Origin: an uncultured Clostridia bacterium
GTDB taxonomy: Bacteria; Bacillota; Clostridia; Christensenellales; UBA1242
Length of the DNA: 64,000 bases
Assembly (NCBI GenBank): GCA_947649575.1
Contig: CANSRZ010000003.1
Span: 35,996-99,995 of the forward strand
Direction: 5' to 3'
The position numbers and the translations under genes are program-made. Each line of letters opens with the position of its first letter. Within the stretch, counting starts at the first letter, position 1. Shown here in pieces: positions 2,505-59,728 of the stretch. The notes under the pieces are model-generated. The model was not told the origin of the DNA and ran no database searches. It saw nothing but the letters and a program-made list of their open reading frames with translations.

Positions 2505-5500
2505 TTATTTATTACTGTTTTTGACGCTTTTAAAGAATGAAATTAAAAATTCAAGCTTATCTTTAACTGTTCCTTTAGGCTCAAACACAATTTTTGCAAG
2601 ACTGTCAAAAGCAAGTTTGCCGCCAAACTCACCCATTTTGAGTGCAAGCATAGGATTTACAACATCCTGCGATTTTTCTAGATAGATTATGCAGTCAGAA
2701 TTATTTATTCTTATCCTGTTTATGCCATAGCCGTTTGCCATATTTTTAAGAAGTGCAATATTACATAGATTTTTAACTTCATTAGGCACACTTCCAAAGC
2801 CGTCAGATAAAGATTTTAAAAGTTCATCACGATTTTCAGGAGTGCCAAGCTCGCTGATTTTTGTGTAAAGCACAATGCGCTCGTCACTGTCAGAGATATA
2901 ATTGTCTCCTATATAAGCGTCAAGAGCAACTTCCATTTTGATTTCTTTGCTTTCTTCTTTTGTTTGACCTTTAAGTTCTTGCGTTGCCTCGTCAAGCAGT
3001 TTCACAAACATGTCATAGCCAACTTTGGCAATATGACCATGTTGCTCTTTGCCAAAAATATTGCCAGCCCCTCTGATTTCAAGGTCGCGCATTGCGATTT
3101 TAAATCCGCTTCCAAGAGTAGAGAACTCTTTTATAGCACTCAGCCTTTTGTAAGCGTCAACAGAAAGCACTTTGTTTTTATCAAATGTAAGATATGCATA
3201 GCTAAGTTTATCACTTCTGCCAATTCTTCCGCGGATTTGATAAAGTTGTCCAAGCCCAAGTTTATCAGCGTCAACAATTATCATTGTGTTGGCAGATGGC
3301 AGGTCAATGCCGTTTTCTATAAGCGTTGTTGAGATAAAAACATTAAATTCTTTCTCATAAAGTTTGTTTATCACATTTTCAAGCACGCGCTCTTGCATTT
3401 GACCATGCGCAACTCCTACTTTTGCCTCAGGAACAAGCCTGCGAATATGAGAAGCAAACTCGTCAATATATTCAACGCGATTAAAGATTACAAATGCTTG
3501 ACCGCCTCTTGCAAGTTCGCGAGAAAGCACATCTTTGATAAGCTGGTCACTGTTTTCAACAACGTAAGTTTGAATTGGCAATCGATCACGAGGCGGAGTT
3601 TCTATTATAGAAATGTCCCTTATGCCTGAAAGCGACATGTTAAGCGTTCTTGGGATAGGCGTTGCTGAAAGAGAAAGTACATCGATATTTCTTTTGGCGT
3701 TTTTAATTTTTTCTTTGTGTTCAACGCCAAAACGCTGTTCTTCATCAAGCACCAAAAGCCCAAGATCTTTGAAAACAACGTCGCTGCCAAGCAAGCGATG
3801 AGTGCCAATAAGCATATCGATTTCGCCATTTGCAAGTTTTTTGAGGATTTCTTTTGTCTGAGCAGGAGTTTTAAAGCGATTTAACACTTCGACGTTAACT
3901 CCAAAAGGTTCAAGCCTTGCTTTGCTGTTTATATAATGTTGCTGAGATAGGATTGTTGTTGGGCACAAAAGTGCAACTTGTTTGACGTTATAAGCACACT
4001 TAAAACAAGCCCTGAGTGCAACTTCAGTTTTGCCAAAGCCAACATCTCCGCAAATTAGCCTATCCATAACTTTATGACTTTCCATATCATGACTGATATC
4101 CGCAATAGCCTTTGCTTGGTCAGTTGTAAGTTGAAAGCCGAACGCGTCGTCAAAAGATTTTTCAAGATATTCATCACGTTTAAATTTATATCCAACAGCC
4201 TTTTCGCGCTCTTTATACATTTCTGTCAAAGAGAATGCCATCTCTTTGAGGCTGTCTTTAACCCTCGCTTTAAGTCTAGCAAATTCAGCTCCTCCAAGAG
4301 AAGAAAGTTTTGGCTCTTCTTCGCTTCCAATATAAGCCGAAATAGAGTTTGCCTCTTCTGTTGGAAGATAAAGCATGCCACCATTTTTATATTCAATCAC
4401 AAAATAATCCTTTTCATAATCTCCAAGACGCATGCGCTCAATTTTGATGCACTTGCCAATGCCGTGAAAAGTGTGAACAACATAATCGCCAAGCTTAGGC
4501 AGATAGAAAACTGAATGTTTTCCTTTTGAAAAAGCCGTTGTTTGTTGACGGAAAAGATTGTCTGCGCCAATGCCAACAATATTTTCTTTCAAAAATGAAA
4601 AAGAATATGGAAAATTCAACTCAGAAATATATACTTTGCTTTCCCAAAAAACCTCGCTATCAAAATCATGATAAAGCACGCCATTATCTGTCAAAAACTC
4701 AGCAAGTTTTTGTTTGCCTTTATCGCTTCCGCCAAAAAGGATAACCCCCTGCCCCATTTTGAGATAACTTTCTATGTCATATTTTAAAGCCATAAAGTCT
4801 GTTATATAATTTCTTGTCGCCGTTGATTGATTAAGATAATCACTGTCAAGACCGCTGTTATCAAAGCAAAAATCTGCTTTTTGAGATAAATTTTCAAAAT
4901 CAACATAGTTTTTTTCGTCAAAAACGCTCATTGCTTTATAACTTGATTTTAAAAGTTCAAACTCGTCATCAATTCGCTTAGGCTCGTCAATGATTTTGCA
5001 GCCATTTAAGTCAAAGATATTATTCTCGCCAATTGGCAAGCTTGAAATTGATAAAGAAACTTTATCAATTTCTTGCAAGTTTTTCATCTCGGCAGGGTCA
5101 AAATAATGAATTGCCTCGACCATATCATCAAAGAATTCAATTCGAACAGGCTTTTCGTTGCCCACCATAAAAACATCTAAAATGTCACCTCTCAAAGCAA
5201 ACTGACCTTTATCAGAAACAAGACTGACACGTTCATAGCCATTTTTTGAAAGATGTTCAATGATTTTATCAATCGAATAATTCTCACCCTTTTTGACAAC
5301 AACGTTGTGCAAAAAAACTGAAAGGTCAAATTTGACCATTGCTGAGCATGGCAAAAATATCAGTGCGTCAAGTTTGTTTTCAAGATAAGCATTAATGCCC
5401 TCAACAAAAGGAAGAAGATTTTTATCATCCGCCTCTATATTTTCCCTTGCCGAAGATATAATCTGAACGCGTCTGCCAAGTCCCTCAAGCCCGCGCTTGA

Positions 5501-11633: not shown

Positions 11634-12044
11634 TTATGTCAAAACATATCCGTGTTCCGCAAACCATTGAGGAGAAACACTATCTCCACAATCTGCCATC
11701 CAGAAGAGTGCTTTTTGCATAGGCAAATCATTGTTCATTCCATCAACTAATCCCCAATCAGCGAAATCGCCACTAGAATATGCTTTGTTCCCATTCATAA
11801 TGCTGTAACAACTTGAAATTGTTGAATTCTCGTTTGCAAATTTTGCTAATGCAACATTACTGTTAACAATCGCAGAACAGTTTGTCAATGTTACAGAACT
11901 GCTTGCACTTCCTGCCATCGCACCAGCTGAAGAAATATCACTGCCAGTGAATTTTATATATCCGTTCCCTGACAAATTGCTTAAAGTTGCTGAATTTGCA
12001 TTTCCTATAAACAAACCTGCTGCGTCTGAAGCCTTAATCAGCAA
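11634..12044 (-). pseudogene. Displaced 3' portion of the GLUG-repeat surface protein gene (frameshifted relative to 12038..14200)
   Basis: It would have to start at a TTG with no RBS. Its sequence (LIKASDAAGLFIGNANSATLSNLSGNGYIKF...LTNCSAIV...ISSCYSI) continues the repeat periodicity of the upstream ORF. See the finding at 12030..12050. Confidence 0.7.
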
Positions 12045-14200
12045 TTTGTGACAATGCTGTTGTTGATCTTAGGCTGATAACCATCTCCAGACAAACCGCC
12101 CGCCTTTGAACCCTTTATGTTAGAGTTAGAAACATGACAGTTTGACATTGTTCCCATCATATGAGCGGCTGCTATTCCGCCTGCACAACTACTACTTCCC
12201 GTTGCAGTGACATTGCCAATAAATACACATCCTGTTATGGTAACAGTACTACCTGAAGTTGTAAAAATTCCGCCTGCATATCCGCTTGCATGGGTATTCT
12301 CAAGAGTAACTTCACTTCTGCAATTGATAATATTCCCTGAATATTGTGCCAAACCAACAATTCCGCCTAAATATTGCTTGCTTGTTGTCATATATGAGTT
12401 CTTTACAATAACATTTTTTATTGTTGCATTACAGTTAAAGTCGTTTCCAACATAGCCAAACAGTCCTTGATAATCACCCTGTGAATCATCCAAGTTGATT
12501 CCACTAATAGAATAATTTCCGCCGTCATACTTGCCATTAAATGCTTGGTCAAAACCCTTGCCAATAGCAATCCATTTGTACTTACTTAAGTCAATGTCAC
12601 AGGCCTGCAAAATAAATTTATTTTCAAAATTATCCACGCCGTCATTAACAAGCTGAGCCAATCCCGCCAACTTCTCCGCCGAGTCAATTATATAAGGATT
12701 GCTTTCGCTATCCCCCACCCCCTCAACATGCCATGAAGTGTCAGTCAAAGCTATCCAATGAGTGGCTTTCCAAATAGCTTTTACAATTGACTCCTCTTCA
12801 CCGAATATAAAAGTATTTCCACTAATAGAACCATCACCTGTTACCTCCCAATAATCAAATATATGATATTGTTTTGTAGGAACTGAAAGTACTAATTCAG
12901 TTCCTTTCTTATCCAACACTTCTAACAAACCATCATAATCTCCACCGTTAACATCAATAGTCACTTTACTCAACGCTGCGTTATTATTTAAAAATATTGG
13001 ATACCCATTGTTTTGACTATTTATTATTGTCCAAACATTTTCAAAATCCCATTTATAAGTTTCATCTTTCACAGACCAGTTACTATCATCTAAATACCAA
13101 TTTTTATTTTTAGCATATTCAGTTGAATTTAAATCAACTATTTTTGTTCCAGAGGCAGACATATTACTATATGTAGGCTCCCCATGACCGCTGAATGAAG
13201 AGCATTCGCCTCCATAATAACAATTATTTGTATGAACATCAAGTTCATACTGAGTAATAGAATCTCCTCTAACGTATTTATATCCAATCAAACCACCTGA
13301 CTTACTACCTGAGCACTTACCAACATTAAAACAATTTGTTATAGTTGTGCCCCTAGCGTATCCGACAAGTCCGCCTGCATAATAACCTTGTATTGTCCCA
13401 GTATTATAACAATTACTTATTTTTATGTAATTCCCCGCACTATCCCCTGCTATGCCTCCAACATAGGCTGAAGATGCAGTAGCACTCACGTTTGCAGTAC
13501 TATAACAGTTTTTAATATTTACATATGAATCTACACGCCCCACAAGTCCGCCAACTCTATTACTTCCTTCAATAACAGAGTCAATTACACCCAAATTTTT
13601 TATCGTTATTTCAGTTTGATACGGATAACTCGGACCTCCACCTTTAACATAACTAAATAAACCTTTATAATCACCAGATTTTGTAAACACTCCTGATACT
13701 GTATGTCCATCACCATCATAATTCCCATGAAAATATCTGTAACTGCTACCAACTCCAATCGGTTGCCACCAATAATCTGAAACATCAATATCACAAGTTT
13801 GTCTAAAATAACATTTGGAATAGTAATAATATGATACAGTACCATACGCCCCATTAACTGTGTCATAACTCACTGTATTTTTATATATTGTATATGACAG
13901 CCCTGCTAATTCTTCCGCACTAGAGATTAAATAAGGTGAATCTTCAGAGCCACTACCTTCCCAGTCAAAATCAAGCGTTATGTTCCCACTGTCATGTGCT
14001 TCATTCCAATATTTATCATTTGTTGGCTCCGTTGCGCCTTGGGTTAACTGGCCTGGCTGGACAATTTGTGATTTAGATGAAAAATTGCCTAGGCCAAAAA
14101 CCAAGCCAAAGGTTAAAGCTAATACGCCAAGTGCTGATAAGCCGCCTGTTAGCCATGAAATCAATTTCTTTTTATTGATACCATTTCCAACCTTTATCAT
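12038..14200 (-). CDS. Large surface protein with GLUG-motif repeats and an InlB-B/Listeria-Bacteroides-type repeat, on an N-terminal signal anchor
   Basis: ATGGAGG RBS. N-terminal LISWLTGGLSALGVLALTFGLVFGL. Repeated GGLVG/GGIAG/GGLIG units are separated by N-C-(Y/F) turns. Two PYxIxSAEELAGL...CDIDxSxYxWxPIG modules are present. VTIDVNGGDYDG...FDYWEVTGDG is the InlB-B-type repeat. Confidence 0.8.
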   Translation of the reverse strand: MIKVGNGINKKKLISWLTGGLSALGVLALTFGLVFGLGNFSSKSQIVQPGQLTQGATEPTNDKYWNEAHDSGNITLDFDWEGSGSEDSPYLISSAEELAGLSYTIYKNTVSYDTVNGAYGTVSYYYYSKCYFRQTCDIDVSDYWWQPIGVGSSYRYFHGNYDGDGHTVSGVFTKSGDYKGLFSYVKGGGPSYPYQTEITIKNLGVIDSVIEGSNRVGGLVGRVDSYVNIKNCYSTANVSATASSAYVGGIAGDSAGNYIKISNCYNTGTIQGYYAGGLVGYARGTTITNCFNVGKCSGSKSGGLIGYKYVRGDSITQYELDVHTNNCYYGGECSSFSGHGEPTYSNMSASGTKIVDLNSTEYAKNKNWYLDDSNWSVKDETYKWDFENVWTIINSQNNGYPIFLNNNAALSKVTIDVNGGDYDGLLEVLDKKGTELVLSVPTKQYHIFDYWEVTGDGSISGNTFIFGEEESIVKAIWKATHWIALTDTSWHVEGVGDSESNPYIIDSAEKLAGLAQLVNDGVDNFENKFILQACDIDLSKYKWIAIGKGFDQAFNGKYDGGNYSISGINLDDSQGDYQGLFGYVGNDFNCNATIKNVIVKNSYMTTSKQYLGGIVGLAQYSGNIINCRSEVTLENTHASGYAGGIFTTSGSTVTITGCVFIGNVTATGSSSCAGGIAAAHMMGTMSNCHVSNSNIKGSKAGGLSGDGYQPKINNSIVTNC

Positions 14201-14320: not shown

Positions 14321-14348
14321 AGTATAGCAAATCCCCCCCCCGTGTCAA
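14321..14348 (-). promoter_or_regulatory. Sigma-A-type promoter with a G9 tract (C9 on the + strand) in its 16-nt spacer, upstream of the GLUG surface protein gene
   Basis: The reverse strand reads TTGACA(14348-14343)-CGGGGGGGGGATTTGC-TATACT(14326-14321). The tract spans 14333-14341. Confidence 0.6.
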
Positions 14349-14547
14349 CTAAATCTTAAACAAAGTTAAATTATTTTCAGTTGACACGGGAACAAAGCCA
14401 GACTTCGCGGGTCTTGTATATTTTTGACATGTGGGCAGTCAACTTTTTGTGAAAGAAAGTTCAAACTTTTTTTCGTTTCCACGGGAACTCGGCCTGACCT
14501 ACGAAGAAATAATGCATATTTTTATACAAAAATTAGTGTCAACGGCA

Positions 14548-36849: not shown

Positions 36850-36878
36850 TTGACATTTCATTGTTTTATGTGTATAAT
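36850..36878 (+). promoter_or_regulatory. Sigma-A-type promoter of the rplJ-rplL operon
   Basis: TTGACA (36850-55), a 17-nt spacer, then TATAAT (36873-78). Confidence 0.65.
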
Positions 36879-36884
36879 AGTGTT

Positions 36885-37045
36885 GTTAAAATTAAATCTT
36901 GTCCATAGACAGCAAGTGTCAATGACATAAACGCGTGTGCGTGCTTGCCGAGGAAAGTGTTTTTGAAGATTAGATTATTCTATCTCTATGCCTTTCCCGC
37001 GTGGCGTAGAGATTTTTTGTTAACATAACACAAAACTTTAAATTA
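36885..37045 (+). ncRNA. Ribosomal-protein L10 leader-type autoregulatory 5' UTR with a terminator/attenuator hairpin
   Basis: A ~175-nt structured, comparatively GC-rich leader between the promoter and rplJ. It ends in ATCTCTATGCC-tttcccgcgt-GGCGTAGAGAT plus T6 (36982-37018). Position and architecture match the Firmicutes L10 leader. No covariance model was run. Confidence 0.5.
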
Positions 37046-45018: not shown

Positions 45019-45069
45019 AGAACATTTTGTTCTTAAATGCTTGACTTGGAACAAAATGTTCCATATAAT
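45019..45069 (+). promoter_or_regulatory. Divergent control region: two GAACA-N5-TGTTC palindromes, one inside a TTGACT/TATAAT promoter
   Basis: AGAACATTTTGTTCT (45019-33) and GGAACAAAATGTTCC (45048-62). The second fills the 17-nt spacer between TTGACT (45041-46) and TATAAT (45064-69). Confidence 0.7.
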
Positions 45070-53709: not shown

Positions 53710-53907
53710 ATGAATTTATCACGAAATGTTTTGCTTATTTTGATTTTATCAGTGCTAGCCTCAGCAACTGATACAAATCTAGCCACAAATCAAAACTTCT
53801 TGCTGTTATTATTGCTGTCGTTGTCCAATGATAACAACTTTAATAATGGATGTTGCAGCACAAATACTTGCCCAGGCAATAATTTATTCACTCAATTTTC
53901 AATTTAA
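53710..53907 (+). CDS. Small hydrophobic, Cys-containing peptide (65 aa), divergent from the ArsR gene
   Basis: AAAGGAG RBS 7 nt upstream. MNLSRNVLLILILSVLASATDTNLATNQNFLLLLLLSLSNDNNFNNGCCSTNTCPGNNLFTQFSI. Confidence 0.5.
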   Translation: MNLSRNVLLILILSVLASATDTNLATNQNFLLLLLLSLSNDNNFNNGCCSTNTCPGNNLFTQFSI

Positions 53908-53979
53908 GCGTAAATTTTTAGCGCTTTTTTGAGTAAATATAAAAAATTTTTAATTTTTTGAAAAATTTTGAAAAATCAT

Positions 53980-54007
53980 TTGACAAATCCCCCCCCCGCA
54001 ATATAAT
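53980..54007 (+). promoter_or_regulatory. Sigma-A-type promoter with a C9 tract in its 16-nt spacer, driving the first pilin-like paralog
   Basis: TTGACA(53980-85)-AATCCCCCCCCCGCAA-TATAAT(54002-07), with the tract at 53989-53997. The AAAGGAG RBS and ATG 54038 follow 30 nt later. Confidence 0.7.
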
Positions 54008-54037
54008 AGGCTATATTCTAAAACAAAGGAGAAAAAT

Positions 54038-54421
54038 ATGGGGATTTTTTCAAGATTATTGGACACGACAACAAATACAGCAAACACAGCCACCACTGGC
54101 TGGGCAGGCGCTTTTAGTGATGCTAATATTACTGAAAAATTTGGAGCAGAATATGTTAGCAAACTTTCTTGGATTGCAAAAGTATTTGGCCCAATCAGTA
54201 TCGTGATGTACATATTAATGGGGCTTGTTGGTGCTGCTGGTGCGGTTTATGCAATCTATCTTGGCGTTATGCTTGCCAAAGCTGAGGATACATCAAAACG
54301 CGATGAAGCAAGAAAACACTTGATCACTGTTCTTATCGCTGTTGCTTGTACTGTTGTTCTTGTTTTGTTCTTTAATTTATTGTTACCTGAAATAGTTGTT
54401 AAACTAATCTCAGTAAAATAG
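54038..54421 (+). CDS. Pilin-like small two-TM membrane protein, paralog 1
   Basis: Variable N-terminus, then the core FGPISIVMYILMGLVGAAGAVYAIYLGVMLAKAEDTSKRDEARKHLITVLIAVACTVVLVLFFNLLLPEIV. The TM-charged loop-TM hairpin resembles VirB2/TrbC-type proteins. Confidence 0.8.
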   Translation: MGIFSRLLDTTTNTANTATTGWAGAFSDANITEKFGAEYVSKLSWIAKVFGPISIVMYILMGLVGAAGAVYAIYLGVMLAKAEDTSKRDEARKHLITVLIAVACTVVLVLFFNLLLPEIVVKLISVK

Positions 54422-54594
54422 CAAATAAAAAACTTAATATGTTGAACAAAATCGAGATAAAATATTTTTGAAAAAATATTTAAAAAAATATGTCGATTTT
54501 GTTTGACATTTTTTTTTATTTAGTTTATTATTCTTTTGTAACTTATAAATATTTTTGCTTAAATTGAACAATAATAAATGGAGGTATAAAATTT

Positions 54595-54981
54595 ATGAAC
54601 GCATTTTTATCAAAATTATTAGGCTGGACTGGTGTCTTCCCACCAACAGGGAGTGATAATATCGCTGATGCCAGCAAATATAAATATGCATGGGTTGGCG
54701 ATGTTTTCGGACCAATCAGTATTGTAATGTACATTCTTATGGGTTTGGTTGGTGCAGCAGGTGCGGTTTACGCAATTTATCTTGGCATTATGCTTGCTAA
54801 GGCTGAAGACCAATCTAAACGTGAAGAAGCTAGAAAACACTTAATCACTGTTCTTATCGCCGTTGCATGTACTGTTGTTCTTGTATTATTCTTCAATGAA
54901 TTATTGCCATTAATTGTAGAAGCACTTATTGGTACACCAGAGGGCATACTTCCTGGCTTAAAACCAAAACCTTGGAATTAA
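54595..54981 (+). CDS. Pilin-like small two-TM membrane protein, paralog 2
   Basis: GGAGG RBS. Own promoter: TTGACA(54503-08), a 17-nt spacer beginning with T9, then TATTAT. Same core with different N- and C-termini. Confidence 0.8.
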   Translation: MNAFLSKLLGWTGVFPPTGSDNIADASKYKYAWVGDVFGPISIVMYILMGLVGAAGAVYAIYLGIMLAKAEDQSKREEARKHLITVLIAVACTVVLVLFFNELLPLIVEALIGTPEGILPGLKPKPWN

Positions 54982-54999: not shown

Positions 55000-55383
55000 A
55001 TGCAAATTACAAATTTATTAAGAACTTGGGCGAGTTTGTTTGAAGGTTCAACAGACTTTGGCTGGATGGCAGACGTATTTGAGCCAATCAGTATTGTAAT
55101 GTATATCCTTATGGGTTTGGTTGGTGCTGCTGGTGCGGTTTATGCAATCTATCTTGGCGTTATGCTTGCCAAAGCTGAAGACCAATCTAAACGTGAAGAA
55201 GCAAGAAAGCACTTAATCACCGTTCTTATCGCTGTTGCTGTTACCGTTGTTCTTGTTTTGTTCTTCAACTTGCTTATGCCAGAAATCGTATATGCTTTGG
55301 TTGGTAAAGATGTTGACCACCCTACAGATACAACTCAAAACGCTGGACAAATTATTCAAGCAGTAAAAGCATTCCTTCATTAA
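55000..55383 (+). CDS. Pilin-like small two-TM membrane protein, paralog 3
   Basis: AGGAGG RBS 18 nt after the paralog 2 stop, so probably co-transcribed. Same core with unique termini. A terminator follows. Confidence 0.8.
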   Translation: MQITNLLRTWASLFEGSTDFGWMADVFEPISIVMYILMGLVGAAGAVYAIYLGVMLAKAEDQSKREEARKHLITVLIAVAVTVVLVLFFNLLMPEIVYALVGKDVDHPTDTTQNAGQIIQAVKAFLH

Positions 55384-55388
55384 AAATT

Positions 55389-55416
55389 AAAAGTCATCAA
55401 TTGATGACTTTTTTTA
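55389..55416 (+). terminator. Intrinsic terminator after paralog 3
   Basis: AAGTCATCAA-TTGATGACTT followed by T5. Confidence 0.8.
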
Positions 55417-55481
55417 TTTTATATTGCAATTTATTTGAAAAAAATATTTTTTTGTGGTATATTAATTATAAGGAGTTTGAT

Positions 55482-55790
55482 ATGTTATCACTTTTATTGA
55501 AATCATATAAATTTTTAGGTAATTACGCTTGGCTGAATGAAGTTTACACTGTTTTGCCACCTATTCTTTATGCAATCCTCGGTTGCGTTGGCGGAGCTGG
55601 CACTGTTTATGCAATTATACTTGGAGTTAATCTCGCCAAGGCAGACAGCGACGATACTAGAAAAAACGCTGCCAATCGTTTGAAAAATACAATTATCGGT
55701 GTCGCAATTTTGCTTGTTCTTGTGCTTGTAATCAACCTCTTGTTGCCAATGGCACTTGCAGCATTCTTGCCAGTTGAAGTTATAAAGTAA
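55482..55790 (+). CDS. Pilin-like small two-TM membrane protein, paralog 4 (divergent, 102 aa)
   Basis: AGGAG RBS before MLSLLLKSYKF. Core ILGCVGGAGTVYAIILGVNLAKADSDDTRKNAANRLKNTIIGVAILLVLVLVINLLLP. Own TTGAAA...TGgTATATT promoter. Confidence 0.75.
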   Translation: MLSLLLKSYKFLGNYAWLNEVYTVLPPILYAILGCVGGAGTVYAIILGVNLAKADSDDTRKNAANRLKNTIIGVAILLVLVLVINLLLPMALAAFLPVEVIK

Positions 55791-56351: not shown

Positions 56352-59300
56352 TTACTTTGATTTCTTTTTCTTTCTTCTGATAACATATATCACATTGGCA
56401 ATTGCTATCACTCCAACAGCGCCAATAAGCACACCAAGTAAAATTGAACTTGTCAAATTTAGTGATTTTGGTTTTACAACTGTATATTCGCCAGTTACAA
56501 ATTGAATTTCAAAATTATCAACTTTATTCCCGCTCACTACTGGCATAATCACATATGTGCCAAGAGTGTTAACATCCAAATCTACAACTTCAAGATTGAT
56601 GATAAGTTCACTCACATCAACATCTTCATGCTTTTCAATCAAATATTCCAAATTGCTTGGTTGCTTGCCTCTCAAGCCCTCTTTTGACTGAGCAACAATA
56701 GTTATCTTTGCTGTAACAATCTCAATTTCAATTTCTCGCTCCAAAATATCCCCTGCCTCATTGTTAAGCTTTGCCCTAGCAGATAGTTTATATTTGCCAA
56801 GTGGCAATTTATCTGTATAATGATAAACAGTGTTATTAAATGTCTTGCCATTTAAAGTATAAGTTACTTCTTTAAACATTTTTCTTGGATAATTAAAGCA
56901 AATTGTAAACTTTTGACCATATTGAATTTCCTGCAAAGCTTCTCCGCTTATTGTCTGAGTTGTCAATTGAATATTGTCAATCTTGAAGTCTATCGGCATA
57001 ACGAACACGCATGGATATTCACAATCTTGCTGAATATAGTTGTTTGCTGGCAAGTTTAGCAAATTAAATTTAACTTCATAGCCATCATAATTAATTGTAT
57101 TAACATCAACAGAGGCTGTATTAAAAGAAATTTGCAAAGGCTCATCTTCGATCCAGCCAGTAACTGTATAATTAAACTCTCTGATTGAGTCAAACTGGTC
57201 TATGATTTGGCTGTCAACTTCTATATACAATGGCAACGCTTCTATTGTGTAAGAAATGCTTGTCTCATTTAAATAAATATCGTTTGCAATTGGAATTATT
57301 TTTAATTGATAATTTCCCGCATTGACAGAATCAGGGCATTCTATGTCATAGTCTTTGCCAAGCACAAGCCCCTCAATTGTCACCTCTGGTTTTTGGACTG
57401 ATTTGTTATATTTGAACACTTTTTGGTCATATTTGACCATATAAACAAAATTTTTGATATAAAGTATACGTGAATAGTTATATTCTTTGTTGTCAACTTT
57501 AAATGTAACTGAAATATTATGATTGCCTGAACGCAAAGTATTGATTGAAAAACTTGATGAATTTGAATATTCTTGATTGTCAAGTTTCCAAACAATATCA
57601 GTAGCCTTGCTGTTTGTTAAAGAAACTATAATATTGTCATCAACTTCAAAAGTGTCACTCGTGTTGTTGTCACAAACAAATGAGATTGGGCTTTGCTCTG
57701 CTACATAATTTGCTTTCACAAGCACGCTGTTTTTGTAATTATAATTTGAAACTGACTGGGTCAAGAAATTTCCCTTATTATAATGACGCACTTGCGCTTG
57801 TGTTATATAATATTGTTCTCTAAGGTCGTCATAAGGCAAATCAACCCATTGATTGCTTGCGTTTAAATATTGATAACTTGTAAAACGATAATTTTCTTTA
57901 ACTGGATTTTCCAAATAATAATTTCTGAAAAGAGAGTCGCTTAAAAGAACTTTACTTTGGAAATTCTCACTCAAATGTCCGCCACCAAGGTTTATATTTA
58001 AATATGTTGTATACTTTGTATTAGCCCCGCTTTCGCCATTATAAACGGCATTGCTGTCTGTATTTACATGGATATAATATGTTTTGCTGTGATTTGCATT
58101 ATTGAGTTGCAAAGTTAAGATAGTTGTGCCCTCATTAAACACATTTGTGTCAACTTTTAAACTTATTTTATAGTCATATTTTGTATATTTTGCAAGTTCT
58201 CCGCTTTGCAAGGTTGTTCCACCTTTTTTGAGAGAATAGCTAGTATAATTCGAATATGGTGAAAAATAAATTGCCATGTCTAAATATTTTGACGGAGAAA
58301 TAAAGCTTGGATATTGAGTTTGAGGTTGAAATTGAGTTATATAAATGTTATTGTCCGTCATAGTCAAAGAGTCAATCACCACATTGTCACGAATTACTGT
58401 TTCATTACGTTTATCAACCAGGCTAAGTTCAAGTTCATCAAGCAAGAACAACTGCTTAACAATCCTACGTTTAGTCATAACTCCTCTTTGAGGATAACTA
58501 TAATTAAAAACTAATTTATAACACCCGCTTGGCAAACTGTCTTTTTTATAAACATAGCAATGCATGTCATCTTTAAGAATAGTAAATTTATCATTAACAA
58601 GCACATCGCCACGATAAATTTCTAGATTATAAGTCAGGTTTTCTTTTGCTGGCAGTTGATAATCAAGTTTAAAATCATCATTAACATCAAAAATGTTTTT
58701 ATCTTTTAATGTAGTGCTTTGAGCTGTATAATTGCTTGCTGCGACATATTTGTTTTTCATGTTAACAGTATAATTTGCATTTGATGACAAATAAATATAA
58801 TCACTTGGTAATGAAACTTGAAAGCTGTATGCTATCACATTTCTTTTAATTGTTGTGTTATAAGGCAAATAAACAATTCCATCCTCCAAGAAATCCCCAT
58901 GAGAGTTCAAAATTATATAAGCGCCTTTTGTTCCATTTGTGGCAACATAACTATCATCCCAGCCAAGCACGTTCAAAGCATGACCGCCCACACTGCCTGT
59001 TGTTAATTCATTCTTGTTGTTGTTTCTATTTGTAACTAAGTCCCAATCATCAATAGAAATTGTGCAATTGCCATTGCTCATAAGATAATTTTTAATAACC
59101 GCTGTATTCAAAGAATATTCACTAGCGCTTGGATAAGACATTGTCACAGTGTGAGTGTCTGCCTTGTCTGCAAGCGAAGAAATAACATTCGTGTTATTGT
59201 TATCATTTAAATAATAAATTTCATCATAAGGAAGATCACTATCAAGCACAAGCCCGTTTGCTCTGACTGCATCGTACACATAATATACGTTTCCGCCATT

Positions 59301-59639
59301 CCCGACCAAATCTTGATAAGGAGCATTTAAAGCAATGTAAGTTTCACTAAATTCAAAATGCTCGCCAGTTTTTTGAGCCAAACACTCTTCAATTGATTTT
59401 ACGTTCGCAAAAGACCAGCAAGTACCAAAATAACCTTGATCAGTGAGTTGAATATAATAATCATCGCGCAAACAAAAATAACTTGGATATGCCGTTGCAT
59501 CCGCATTGCTGTTATTATCTTTTTTGAATAATAACAAGCCTCCACTTAAAATAGCCAAAACACTTATCAGCATTGCAAAAAGGCAGACCAAAAGCGGTTT
59601 GCGAGTTTTATGTAATTTGAAACTACTTGATTTATTCAT
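56352..59639 (-). CDS. Very large papain-family (C1) cysteine peptidase surface protein with multiple Ig-like/MBG-type repeats and a C-terminal TM anchor
   Basis: N-terminal anchor LLVCLFAMLISVLAILSGGLLLF. Catalytic Cys box QGYFGTCWSFA, His box GGHALNVLGWDD, and an Asn region (IILNSHG). Repeats such as YNKSVQKPEVTIEGLVLGKDYDIECPDSVNAGNYQLKI. C-terminal LLGVLIGAVGVIAIANVIYVIRRKKKKSK. Confidence 0.8.
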   Translation of the reverse strand: MNKSSSFKLHKTRKPLLVCLFAMLISVLAILSGGLLLFKKDNNSNADATAYPSYFCLRDDYYIQLTDQGYFGTCWSFANVKSIEECLAQKTGEHFEFSETYIALNAPYQDLVGNGGNVYYVYDAVRANGLVLDSDLPYDEIYYLNDNNNTNVISSLADKADTHTVTMSYPSASEYSLNTAVIKNYLMSNGNCTISIDDWDLVTNRNNNKNELTTGSVGGHALNVLGWDDSYVATNGTKGAYIILNSHGDFLEDGIVYLPYNTTIKRNVIAYSFQVSLPSDYIYLSSNANYTVNMKNKYVAASNYTAQSTTLKDKNIFDVNDDFKLDYQLPAKENLTYNLEIYRGDVLVNDKFTILKDDMHCYVYKKDSLPSGCYKLVFNYSYPQRGVMTKRRIVKQLFLLDELELSLVDKRNETVIRDNVVIDSLTMTDNNIYITQFQPQTQYPSFISPSKYLDMAIYFSPYSNYTSYSLKKGGTTLQSGELAKYTKYDYKISLKVDTNVFNEGTTILTLQLNNANHSKTYYIHVNTDSNAVYNGESGANTKYTTYLNINLGGGHLSENFQSKVLLSDSLFRNYYLENPVKENYRFTSYQYLNASNQWVDLPYDDLREQYYITQAQVRHYNKGNFLTQSVSNYNYKNSVLVKANYVAEQSPISFVCDNNTSDTFEVDDNIIVSLTNSKATDIVWKLDNQEYSNSSSFSINTLRSGNHNISVTFKVDNKEYNYSRILYIKNFVYMVKYDQKVFKYNKSVQKPEVTIEGLVLGKDYDIECPDSVNAGNYQLKIIPIANDIYLNETSISYTIEALPLYIEVDSQIIDQFDSIREFNYTVTGWIEDEPLQISFNTASVDVNTINYDGYEVKFNLLNLPANNYIQQDCEYPCVFVMPIDFKIDNIQLTTQTISGEALQEIQYGQKFTICFNYPRKMFKEVTYTLNGKTFNNTVYHYTDKLPLGKYKLSARAKLNNEAGDILEREIEIEIVTAKITIVAQSKEGLRGKQPSNLEYLIEKHEDVDVSELIINLEVVDLDVNTLGTYVIMPVVSGNKVDNFEIQFVTGEYTVVKPKSLNLTSSILLGVLIGAVGVIAIANVIYVIRRKKKKSK

Positions 59640-59728
59640 ATATATATAATACCACAAAAATATAAATTTTACAATAAAAAGAGTGATTAATTTATATTTT
59701 TTAATATAACCAATTCACTCTTTAAATA

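Follow-up and report, generated by a model that had tools for sequence, protein, structure and literature searches.

Homopolymer tracts in promoter spacers that act as switches are a hallmark of mucosal pathogens, namely Neisseria, Bordetella, Mycoplasma and Treponema. In Neisseria meningitidis, the promoter spacer of porA carries a poly-G tract and those of opc and fetA carry poly-C tracts, and one-base changes in these tracts shift the spacing among optimal, sub-optimal and non-functional states and so grade expression. Homopolymer length also controls paralogous surface-protein genes in Mycoplasma hyorhinis, through the poly-A tracts of vlp, and in Treponema pallidum, through the poly-G tracts of tpr. 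In gut commensals, most of the phase variation known so far involves invertible promoters and methyltransferase switching. For the C-stretch promoters of fim2, fim3 and fimX in Bordetella, transcription has been found to change with tract length, and for fimX a tract of C7 versus C8 makes an approximately fourfold difference in expression, with most strains at C7 and a minority at C8 (PMC1891110). Arrays of VirB2-like genes (PF18895 / PF04956) occur in Patescibacteria, Bartonella and Anaplasma as 2–11 divergent tandem genes with a presumed role in antigenic variation or host range (bioRxiv 10.1101/2025.01.22.634366).

The locus that we describe here, from an uncultured gut Clostridia bacterium, places a C9 tract in the spacer of a promoter (P1) directly ahead of an array of four pilin-like paralogs. 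On balance, we favor the reading that this tract is a candidate "dimmer" of a contingency locus, comparable to the C-stretches of porA, opc and fim, with switching as its predicted behavior. The window, by which we mean the whole 64,000-nt stretch of DNA that was analyzed, has a G+C content of 35%, and P1 within it is composed of the following features.

53954-53979, + strand: A/T-rich block TTTTTTGAAAAATTTTGAAAAATCAT abutting the -35 box, a possible UP-element (sequence)
53980-53985, + strand: P1 -35 hexamer TTGACA (consensus scan; identical in the sister species L004 and L006)
53986-54001, + strand: P1 spacer AATCCCCCCCCCGCAA, 16 nt, which reads AATC9GCAA (sequence and consensus scan)
53989-53997, + strand: C9 homopolymer, the candidate slippage tract (run-length count)
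54002-54007, + strand: P1 -10 hexamer TATAAT (consensus scan)
54025-54031, + strand: ribosome-binding site AAAGGAG, 6 nt before the ATG at 54038 (sequence)

The hexamers, spacer, ribosome-binding site and start codon all lie exactly where the initial annotation of this DNA had put them. The two P1 boxes match the consensus at 12/12 hexamer positions, and the C9 tract is wholly within the 16-nt spacer that separates them. The ATG of paralog 1 follows P1 at a distance of 30 nt, and the consensus scan lists no further promoter-like site in this interval, in agreement with the earlier claim that no alternative promoter precedes the ATG. Judging by its boxes, P1 is a real and strong σA-type (housekeeping-sigma) promoter and is presumably used as one. 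Two other promoters that had been cited for comparison are present as well, at 36850 (12/12, 17-nt spacer) and at 45041 (11/12, 17-nt spacer). The start site predicted from the promoter at 36850 is the first base of the L10 leader, since the Rfam match to this leader begins at 36885, and thus canonical σA-type boxes are meaningful in this organism. The A/T-rich block at 53954-53979 is partially conserved in an alignment with L004 and L006, and the DNA farther upstream is unalignable. Rfam and tRNA scans returned no match at either of the two long C/G tracts of the window.

The tract at P1 is an outlier in its own surroundings. C runs in the window number 63 at length 4, six at length 5 and two at length 9, and G runs number eight at length 4 and one at length 5, with none of length 6–8 for either base across the 64 kb; this spectrum bears out the statement that there are only two 9-nt C/G runs and that the next longest is 5 nt. 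The absence of runs of 6–8 nt elsewhere in the window suggests that such runs are normally avoided. A first-order estimate from the observed run-extension probabilities gives 0.018 expected C/G runs of at least 9 nt versus the 2 that are seen (P of two or more ~1.7e-4), and C9 is in this sense over-represented relative to composition, as is expected of a contingency tract, and it has a length at which such tracts are hypermutable. Near-consensus promoter sites with at most one hexamer mismatch number ~30 in the window and have a modal spacer of 17 nt, and from these site counts we infer that the chance of both 9-nt runs falling wholly inside such spacers is on the order of 1e-5. Both runs do sit in 16-nt spacers, as had been claimed, one at P1 (12/12) and the other at a second site (11/12). 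The placement of the C9 tracts is non-random, far beyond chance, and the two probabilities weigh directly against coincidence in AT-rich DNA, an explanation that, taken together with sequencing or assembly artefact, we regard as extremely improbable.

The second tract lies on the opposite strand, ahead of a gene for a repeat-containing surface protein.

14321-14348, - strand: promoter with TTGACA (14348-43), spacer CG9ATTTGC and TATACT (14326-21) (scan, 11/12)
12038-14200, - strand: GLUG-repeat surface protein, 720 aa, with an N-terminal membrane anchor or signal (ORF, Pfam)
14246-14218, - strand: proximal promoter-like site TTGATA-17-TATGAT ahead of the GLUG gene (scan)

Here the tract is a G9 at 14341-14333 (- strand) in a 16-nt spacer with a TG extended -10, and the promoter is ~120 nt upstream of the GLUG-repeat gene, whose product matches Pfam Glug (PF07581, E = 1.4e-13, 4 repeats). 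We propose that this second promoter of the same design would govern the GLUG-repeat protein, so that the window would hold at least two independently switchable surface loci. Switching at the second tract would modulate rather than abolish expression, because of the alternative promoter-like site at 14246-14218. In the relatives L076-L078, which were reached via the neighboring VTT/DedA gene, this position lacks the GLUG block, and thus there is no orthologous promoter with which to compare the second tract; a search for the exact 720-aa GLUG protein found no database record. The two window tracts have in common a 15-nt core, CAAATC9G, whose orientation with respect to the hexamers is reversed from one promoter to the other. 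Once the constraints of the -35 box and the TG motif are discounted, the probability of this coincidence is only ~1e-2, and we give it no weight as evidence.

Downstream of P1, the array and its regulatory sites are arranged as follows.

54038-54421, + strand: paralog 1, 127 aa, two-helix membrane protein whose N-terminal ~50 aa form a variable tail (ORF)
54503-54531, + strand: P2, promoter-like site TTGACA-17-TATTAT with T9 in its spacer (54509-54517) (scan)
54595-54981, + strand: paralog 2, 128 aa (ORF)
55000-55383, + strand: paralog 3, 127 aa, 18 nt after paralog 2 (ORF)
55389-55412, + strand: terminator-like hairpin with a T-rich tail, 3′ of paralog 3 (scan)
55435-55463, + strand: promoter-like site TTGAAA-17-TATATT ahead of paralog 4 (scan)
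55482-55790, + strand: paralog 4, ~102 aa from the ATG at 55482, a divergent member (ORF)

The initial annotation had P1 driving the array as a whole, and this holds for paralog 1 but has to be narrowed for the others, since paralogs 2 and 4 have promoter-like sites of their own and a terminator-like hairpin follows paralog 3. From this arrangement, P1 would directly control paralog 1 and at most reach paralogs 2 and 3 by read-through, and in that sense P1 possibly serves paralogs 1–3. The C tract precedes paralog 1 only; paralog 2 has the T9 of P2 instead, which is the only T9 of the window and is unchanged in L001, L002, L003, L058 and L080.

All four paralogs reach the cutoff of 40 bits for NCBIfam NF045849, the 'Mbov_0395 family pilin-like conjugal transfer protein', with 41.0, 41.6, 44.4 and 40.3 bits for paralogs 1 to 4, respectively. 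For Pfam PF18895 (T4SS_pilin), paralog 4 scores 33.6 bits (cutoff 26.6) and paralogs 1–3 fall below the cutoff; among the homologs in databases, many have a PF18895 hit in their precomputed annotation. An alignment of the paralogs shows a conserved core of two hydrophobic helices and a charged loop (AKAEDxSKRxEA). The tails at both termini vary, a pattern that exposed and diversifying regions would give, and the tails are predicted to be exposed. For paralog 1, the AF2 model, made with 54 homologs, folds two helices (H37-81 and H85-125) into a hairpin (pLDDT 77), and the model together with the conserved loop has the helix-loop-helix hairpin of the T4SS_pilin family. Foldseek against the PDB gave only E >= 0.67 and a PDB profile search gave nothing, and we draw nothing from these searches, since so simple a fold as a helical hairpin does not discriminate. 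The term "pilin-like" that had been given to these genes is thus justified at the HMM level, where the NF045849 cutoff is reached, but it is not accompanied by T4SS machinery: no T4SS component was found in the ORFs scanned for one, which were 8 of the 32 ORFs of at least 250 aa (the ones as large as a T4SS ATPase, together with some others) and two smaller ones. Most of the scanned ORFs are housekeeping in nature (Mfd, FtsH, LeuRS, RecD2, a P-type ATPase, a GerA-type protein and an MFS protein), and three matched no family. The neighbors of the array encode QueH, a signal peptidase, HU, an ArsR-family regulator and a 1101-aa C1-peptidase surface protein.

We then have the tract in six independent assemblies of the species, namely the window, ERZ14650990 (L001/L065), ERZ28572702 (L002), ERZ14864022 (L056), SRR24951065 (L066) and ERZ13657893 (L071). 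All six have C9, as read from consensus sequences that report the majority call and in which minority variants are not visible. This is so even in L066 and L071, where the intergenic DNA differs from the window at 5 and 7 positions, respectively. A search for further same-species samples by way of paralog 2 found no additional contig that reaches the tract. Three contigs (L068, L070 and L075) stop 15–30 nt short of the tracts, which shows that the tracts cause trouble in short-read assembly, and this is what could be said for an artefact. At a coverage of about 2-3x, these endings are not interpretable as heterogeneity. The presence of C9 in six independent assemblies and of a homologous tract in two other species speaks the other way, and the artefact reading is effectively refuted by this replication.

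The same constancy is what one would expect of a static element, and it counts in favor of that alternative, which we rate as less probable than a dimmer. In the static form, the C-run would be fixed and selected, either as a regulator site (T-C8/9-G) or as a stiff G:C block that sets promoter strength; regulation would then be conventional and tract length effectively stable on ecological timescales. C9 in 6/6 assemblies despite nearby SNPs fits such an element. A contingency locus would be expected to show tract-length polymorphism within the species, and none is present across the six consensus assemblies. An invariant C9 is compatible with a prevailing, favored setting of a switch, much as most Bordetella strains share the C7 allele of fimX, yet it lends switching no positive support.

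Differences in length do appear between species. When one genome per species was scanned, 52 related loci came up, all of them from uncultured gut Clostridia that are Christensenellales or 'Eubacteriales' MAGs. The P1 promoter is kept only in the two closest relatives, L004 and L006, and the other 50 of the 52 loci are without it. L004 has TTGACA-AGTC8GCAT-TATAAT with a 15-nt spacer, and L006 has TTGACA-AGTC9GCAA-TATAAT with a 16-nt spacer, here ahead of the second array gene. The core retained in both is TTGACAAGTC(8/9)GCA(T/A)TATAAT. L004 is syntenic with the window from QueH through a hypothetical gene, ArsR, the promoter and three paralogs to the C1-peptidase protein, and the pilin-like proteins of the two relatives are ~60–64% identical to paralog 1. 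Outside the promoter block, the intergenic DNA of L004 and L006 is unalignable, with an insertion of ~200 nt in L004. Since the proteins have diverged this far and the remaining intergenic DNA does not align, the promoter and its tract form a conserved island that differs by one C. Tract length, which the initial annotation held to be changeable, is C9 in all six assemblies of the species and C8 (L004) versus C9 (L006) in the sister species. This one-base difference could be an ordinary fixed indel.

The sister species bear on the static element from both sides. The T before the tract, the G after it and the GCA before the -10 box are conserved in L004 and L006, which is more than a spacer needs if only its length matters, and a divergently oriented ArsR-family regulator gene lies ~430 nt upstream and is syntenic in L004; both points favor a static element. 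Against a fixed element, the spacer itself is of different length in the two species (15 vs 16 nt) and is longer again (18 nt) in a further contig, L003.

There is no C/G run of at least 7 nt in 47 of the 52 loci, all more distant ones, which counts against the dimmer. In its favor, the ~370 kb of related loci contain 7 non-redundant C/G runs of at least 8 nt, far more than the roughly 0.5 expected from the geometric decay of shorter runs. Four of those seven are in promoter spacers of pilin-like genes, one is at a frameshift, and two encode in-frame Gly-Gly-Gly. The frameshift is in a YdeN-like hydrolase gene of L006 and coincides exactly with a G8 tract, and it reflects slippage or else a mistake in assembly.

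The same promoter design was also found outside these loci. In L003, a 653-nt contig of low coverage, 546 nt are 100% identical to window positions 54020-54565, a block that spans the 5′ UTR, paralog 1 and P2, and the flanks on both sides are unrelated to the window. The promoter upstream of the block is a different one, TTGACA-TTTGCATAG9C-TATAAT, with a G9 in an 18-nt spacer. This junction is a reason to consider recombinational switching, in which promoter and gene cassettes would be exchanged or inverted (an inverton) and the tract would be incidental. P1, paralog 1 and P2 lie between the arms of an imperfect inverted repeat of 23 nt (53898-53920 / 54546-54568), and it is within the right arm that the L003 homology stops. 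The repeat matches at 20/23 positions, which is reached or beaten in 13% of region shuffles, the inverted junction is in no contig (including L058, L080 and L081), and the Pfam and NCBIfam scans of flanking genes gave no recombinase domain. In addition, so short and thinly covered a contig as L003 could be chimeric. We therefore judge recombinational switching to be improbable, and an inverton at P1 was rejected on the lack of significance of the repeat, the lack of an inverted junction and the lack of a recombinase match in the scanned flanking genes. A real cassette exchange would still not make the tract incidental, since the promoter in L003 has a G9 in its spacer too.

A pattern scan of JGI metagenomes for the promoter design gave 4 hits, 2 of them with C8 or longer; L061, an unrelated contig, has C9 in a 16-nt spacer ahead of a lipoprotein gene with an LAGC lipobox, and L063 has C8 in a 16-nt spacer. 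Scans of IMG/VR gave 0 and 5 hits. The rarity of the exact design in the JGI and IMG/VR scans gives no sign of a widespread mobile promoter cassette. In a pair of viral contigs (L084/L086), the tract is C9 in one and C8T in the other, and the spacer stays at 18 nt by substitution, which again is more easily understood if the element is static.

Returning to the dimmer that we favor, replication slippage would add or remove one C and the spacing between the -35 and -10 boxes would shift with it. C10 would give a spacer of 17 nt, C9 one of 16 nt and C8 one of 15 nt. By analogy with σ70-type promoters, 17 nt would be optimal, 16 nt, as in the window, would give reduced or intermediate expression, and 15 nt, as in L004, would be weak or off. 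A change in tract length would be both heritable and reversible, and the assembled C9 state would represent the prevailing, sub-maximal setting in the gut. The spacers that we observe are 16, 16, 15, 18 and 16 nt. It is odd that none is at the optimum of 17 nt, and a simple ON/OFF model would not have predicted this.

G/C runs of at least 8 nt are intrinsically slippage-prone in every bacterium examined, and this, like the absence of runs of 6–8 nt elsewhere in the window, counts against a static element. The core shared by both window tracts could be taken as the recognition sequence of such an element, but the reversal of its orientation between the two promoters is a poor fit with a positioned operator. 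We know of no regulator that recognizes a T-C8/9-G site, which also counts against the static element.

The slipped-strand switch that the initial annotation proposed is thus sustained in part. An outlier tract is in the spacer, the arrangement recurs, and the tract is C8 in one sister species and C9 in the other, but the six assemblies of the species show no variation. That P1 is used, that its output depends on tract length, and that slippage takes place at some rate are what we infer from this arrangement. The locus works like a contingency locus and is not yet a proven one.

A broader reading, which we put forward tentatively, is that spore-forming Christensenellales-like gut Clostridia run a small homopolymer-promoter 'phasome', with at least two loci here, that dims orphan VirB2-like pilins and large adhesin-like proteins. 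Other loci of the same design in relatives may belong to it, and cassettes may be shuffled between tract-bearing promoters, as in L003. If the switch is real, commensal Clostridia would gain their first described contingency system based on an SSR promoter, and contingency-locus biology would extend to abundant uncultured gut Clostridia. Such a switch would point to the surface structures of these bacteria that are under fluctuating immune or phage selection, and T4SS-independent VirB2-like arrays would be variable surface structures under such selection. It would also flag short G/C tracts as places where metagenome assemblies hide functional heterogeneity, with contigs tending to break nearby. 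The locus also makes the orphan VirB2-like pilin arrays of monoderm bacteria worth a closer look.

The mechanism that we propose is of a known kind and is essentially undescribed in gut Clostridia. A literature search on SSR or homopolymer promoter phase variation in Christensenellales or other commensal Clostridia found nothing relevant, and to our knowledge no homopolymer promoter control of VirB2-like arrays has been reported. Like those arrays, the one in the window has several divergent members, here four paralogs with a conserved core and variable tails. VirB2-like arrays are usually near virB4, whereas this one is in syntenic core-chromosome DNA between ArsR and the C1-peptidase gene, with no T4SS among the scanned ORFs.

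Like Neisseria porA, opc and fetA, the locus has a G/C homopolymer separating the -35 box from the -10 box in a σ70-type promoter, here that of a putative surface protein. The Neisseria systems belong to diderm pathogens, their switching has been measured, and their tract lengths vary widely among isolates, whereas the window locus is from uncultured monoderm gut Clostridia, has a short tract (8–9) and shows one tract length in all six assemblies of the species. The vlp and tpr systems, in wall-less or small-genome bacteria, resemble it in having a homopolymer in or beside the promoter of surface-protein paralogs. They differ in that the vlp tract is poly-A, the tpr tracts are upstream of the start site and not strictly between the boxes, and the proteins are of lipoprotein or Tpr families and are not pilin-like. 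The fim2, fim3, fimX and fimN promoters of Bordetella pertussis and Bordetella bronchiseptica are dependent on BvgA, have C-stretches of 10–19, and serve chaperone-usher subunits that are unrelated to VirB2-like pilins. In their logic they are nonetheless the closest to the locus described here, as paralogous genes for filament subunits that are dimmed individually.

The C9 tract of P1, the promoter of the first pilin-like gene, and the G9 tract in the promoter of a GLUG-repeat surface protein gene have in common a 15-nt string, CAAATCCCCCCCCCG, which is found on the + strand at 53984-53998 and at 14328-14342 of the window. Relative to the -35 and -10 boxes, the string is oriented oppositely at the two tracts, and the chance of such a coincidence is about 1e-2 once the bases constrained by the boxes are discounted. 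The features around the G9 tract are as follows.

14321-14348, - strand: second promoter with a G9 tract in its spacer, upstream of the GLUG-repeat gene
12038-14200, - strand: GLUG-repeat surface protein, 720 aa
14339-14353 / 14376-14390: inverted repeat, 15 nt, 93%, with a perfect 11-nt core, CCCGTGTCAAC / GTTGACACGGG
14368-14403 / 14463-14498: G+C-rich direct repeat

One arm of the inverted repeat takes in the -35 box together with the G's that open the G9 tract, and the repeat at this promoter could represent an operator or else the scar of an insertion. When compared with three relatives (L076-L078), the entire GLUG block is an insertion, with the VTT/DedA gene on one side and LysM/Polysacc_synt genes on the other. 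The GLUG-repeat gene itself is broken near 12040, where the 720-aa ORF overlaps a 136-aa ORF (11634-12044, - strand) in a different frame. The junction of these two ORFs contains no homopolymer, and the split may mean that this is a pseudogene, that the sequencing went wrong here, or that a frameshift is programmed.

A 653-nt contig (L003, ERZ28572879, 1-653) carries a 546-nt block identical to window positions 54020-54565, joined at both ends to unrelated DNA that includes a different, G9-bearing promoter. Either cassettes have been exchanged between promoters that bear tracts, or this low-coverage contig is a chimera.

Two further features flank the pilin-like array.

53710-53907, + strand: small ORF (about 65 aa, good RBS) in the interval that separates the array from the ArsR regulator gene
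56352-59657, - strand: 1101-aa protein, convergent with the array and syntenic in the sister-species locus L004

The small ORF, which is without a gene call in public contigs, is kept in L004 at 70-85% DNA identity, and its product starts with a sequence resembling a signal peptide, contains a Leu-rich stretch and ends in a Cys-rich tail; it may be a secreted peptide. The 1101-aa protein carries a papain-like C1 peptidase domain at its N-terminus and a membrane anchor at its C-terminus, as well as long repeat-like regions. Within the array, the promoter-like site of paralog 2 (54503-54531) has in its 17-nt spacer the sole T9 of the window. This T9 is the same in five assemblies and could double as the U-tract in a weak terminator behind paralog 1.

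Between the conserved small ORF and its C8 promoter, L004 contains an insertion of about 200 nt (~3060-3290) that is G+C-richer and repeat-like, encodes a spurious ORF '...VEGSIIPCRHFDRSDSEVEKSL...', and looks like a miniature mobile element. The other sister-species locus, L006, has a G8 tract (2447-2454, - strand) within a YdeN-like serine hydrolase gene, at a frameshift that splits the ORF; this is either the OFF state of translational phase variation or an assembly error.

Promoters of the form TTGACA...C8-9...TATAAT also occur in two pairs of related IMG/VR viral contigs (L083/L085 and L084/L086). Within one pair the spacer is 16 nt versus 15 nt, and in the other an 18-nt spacer is retained through a C9-to-C8T substitution.
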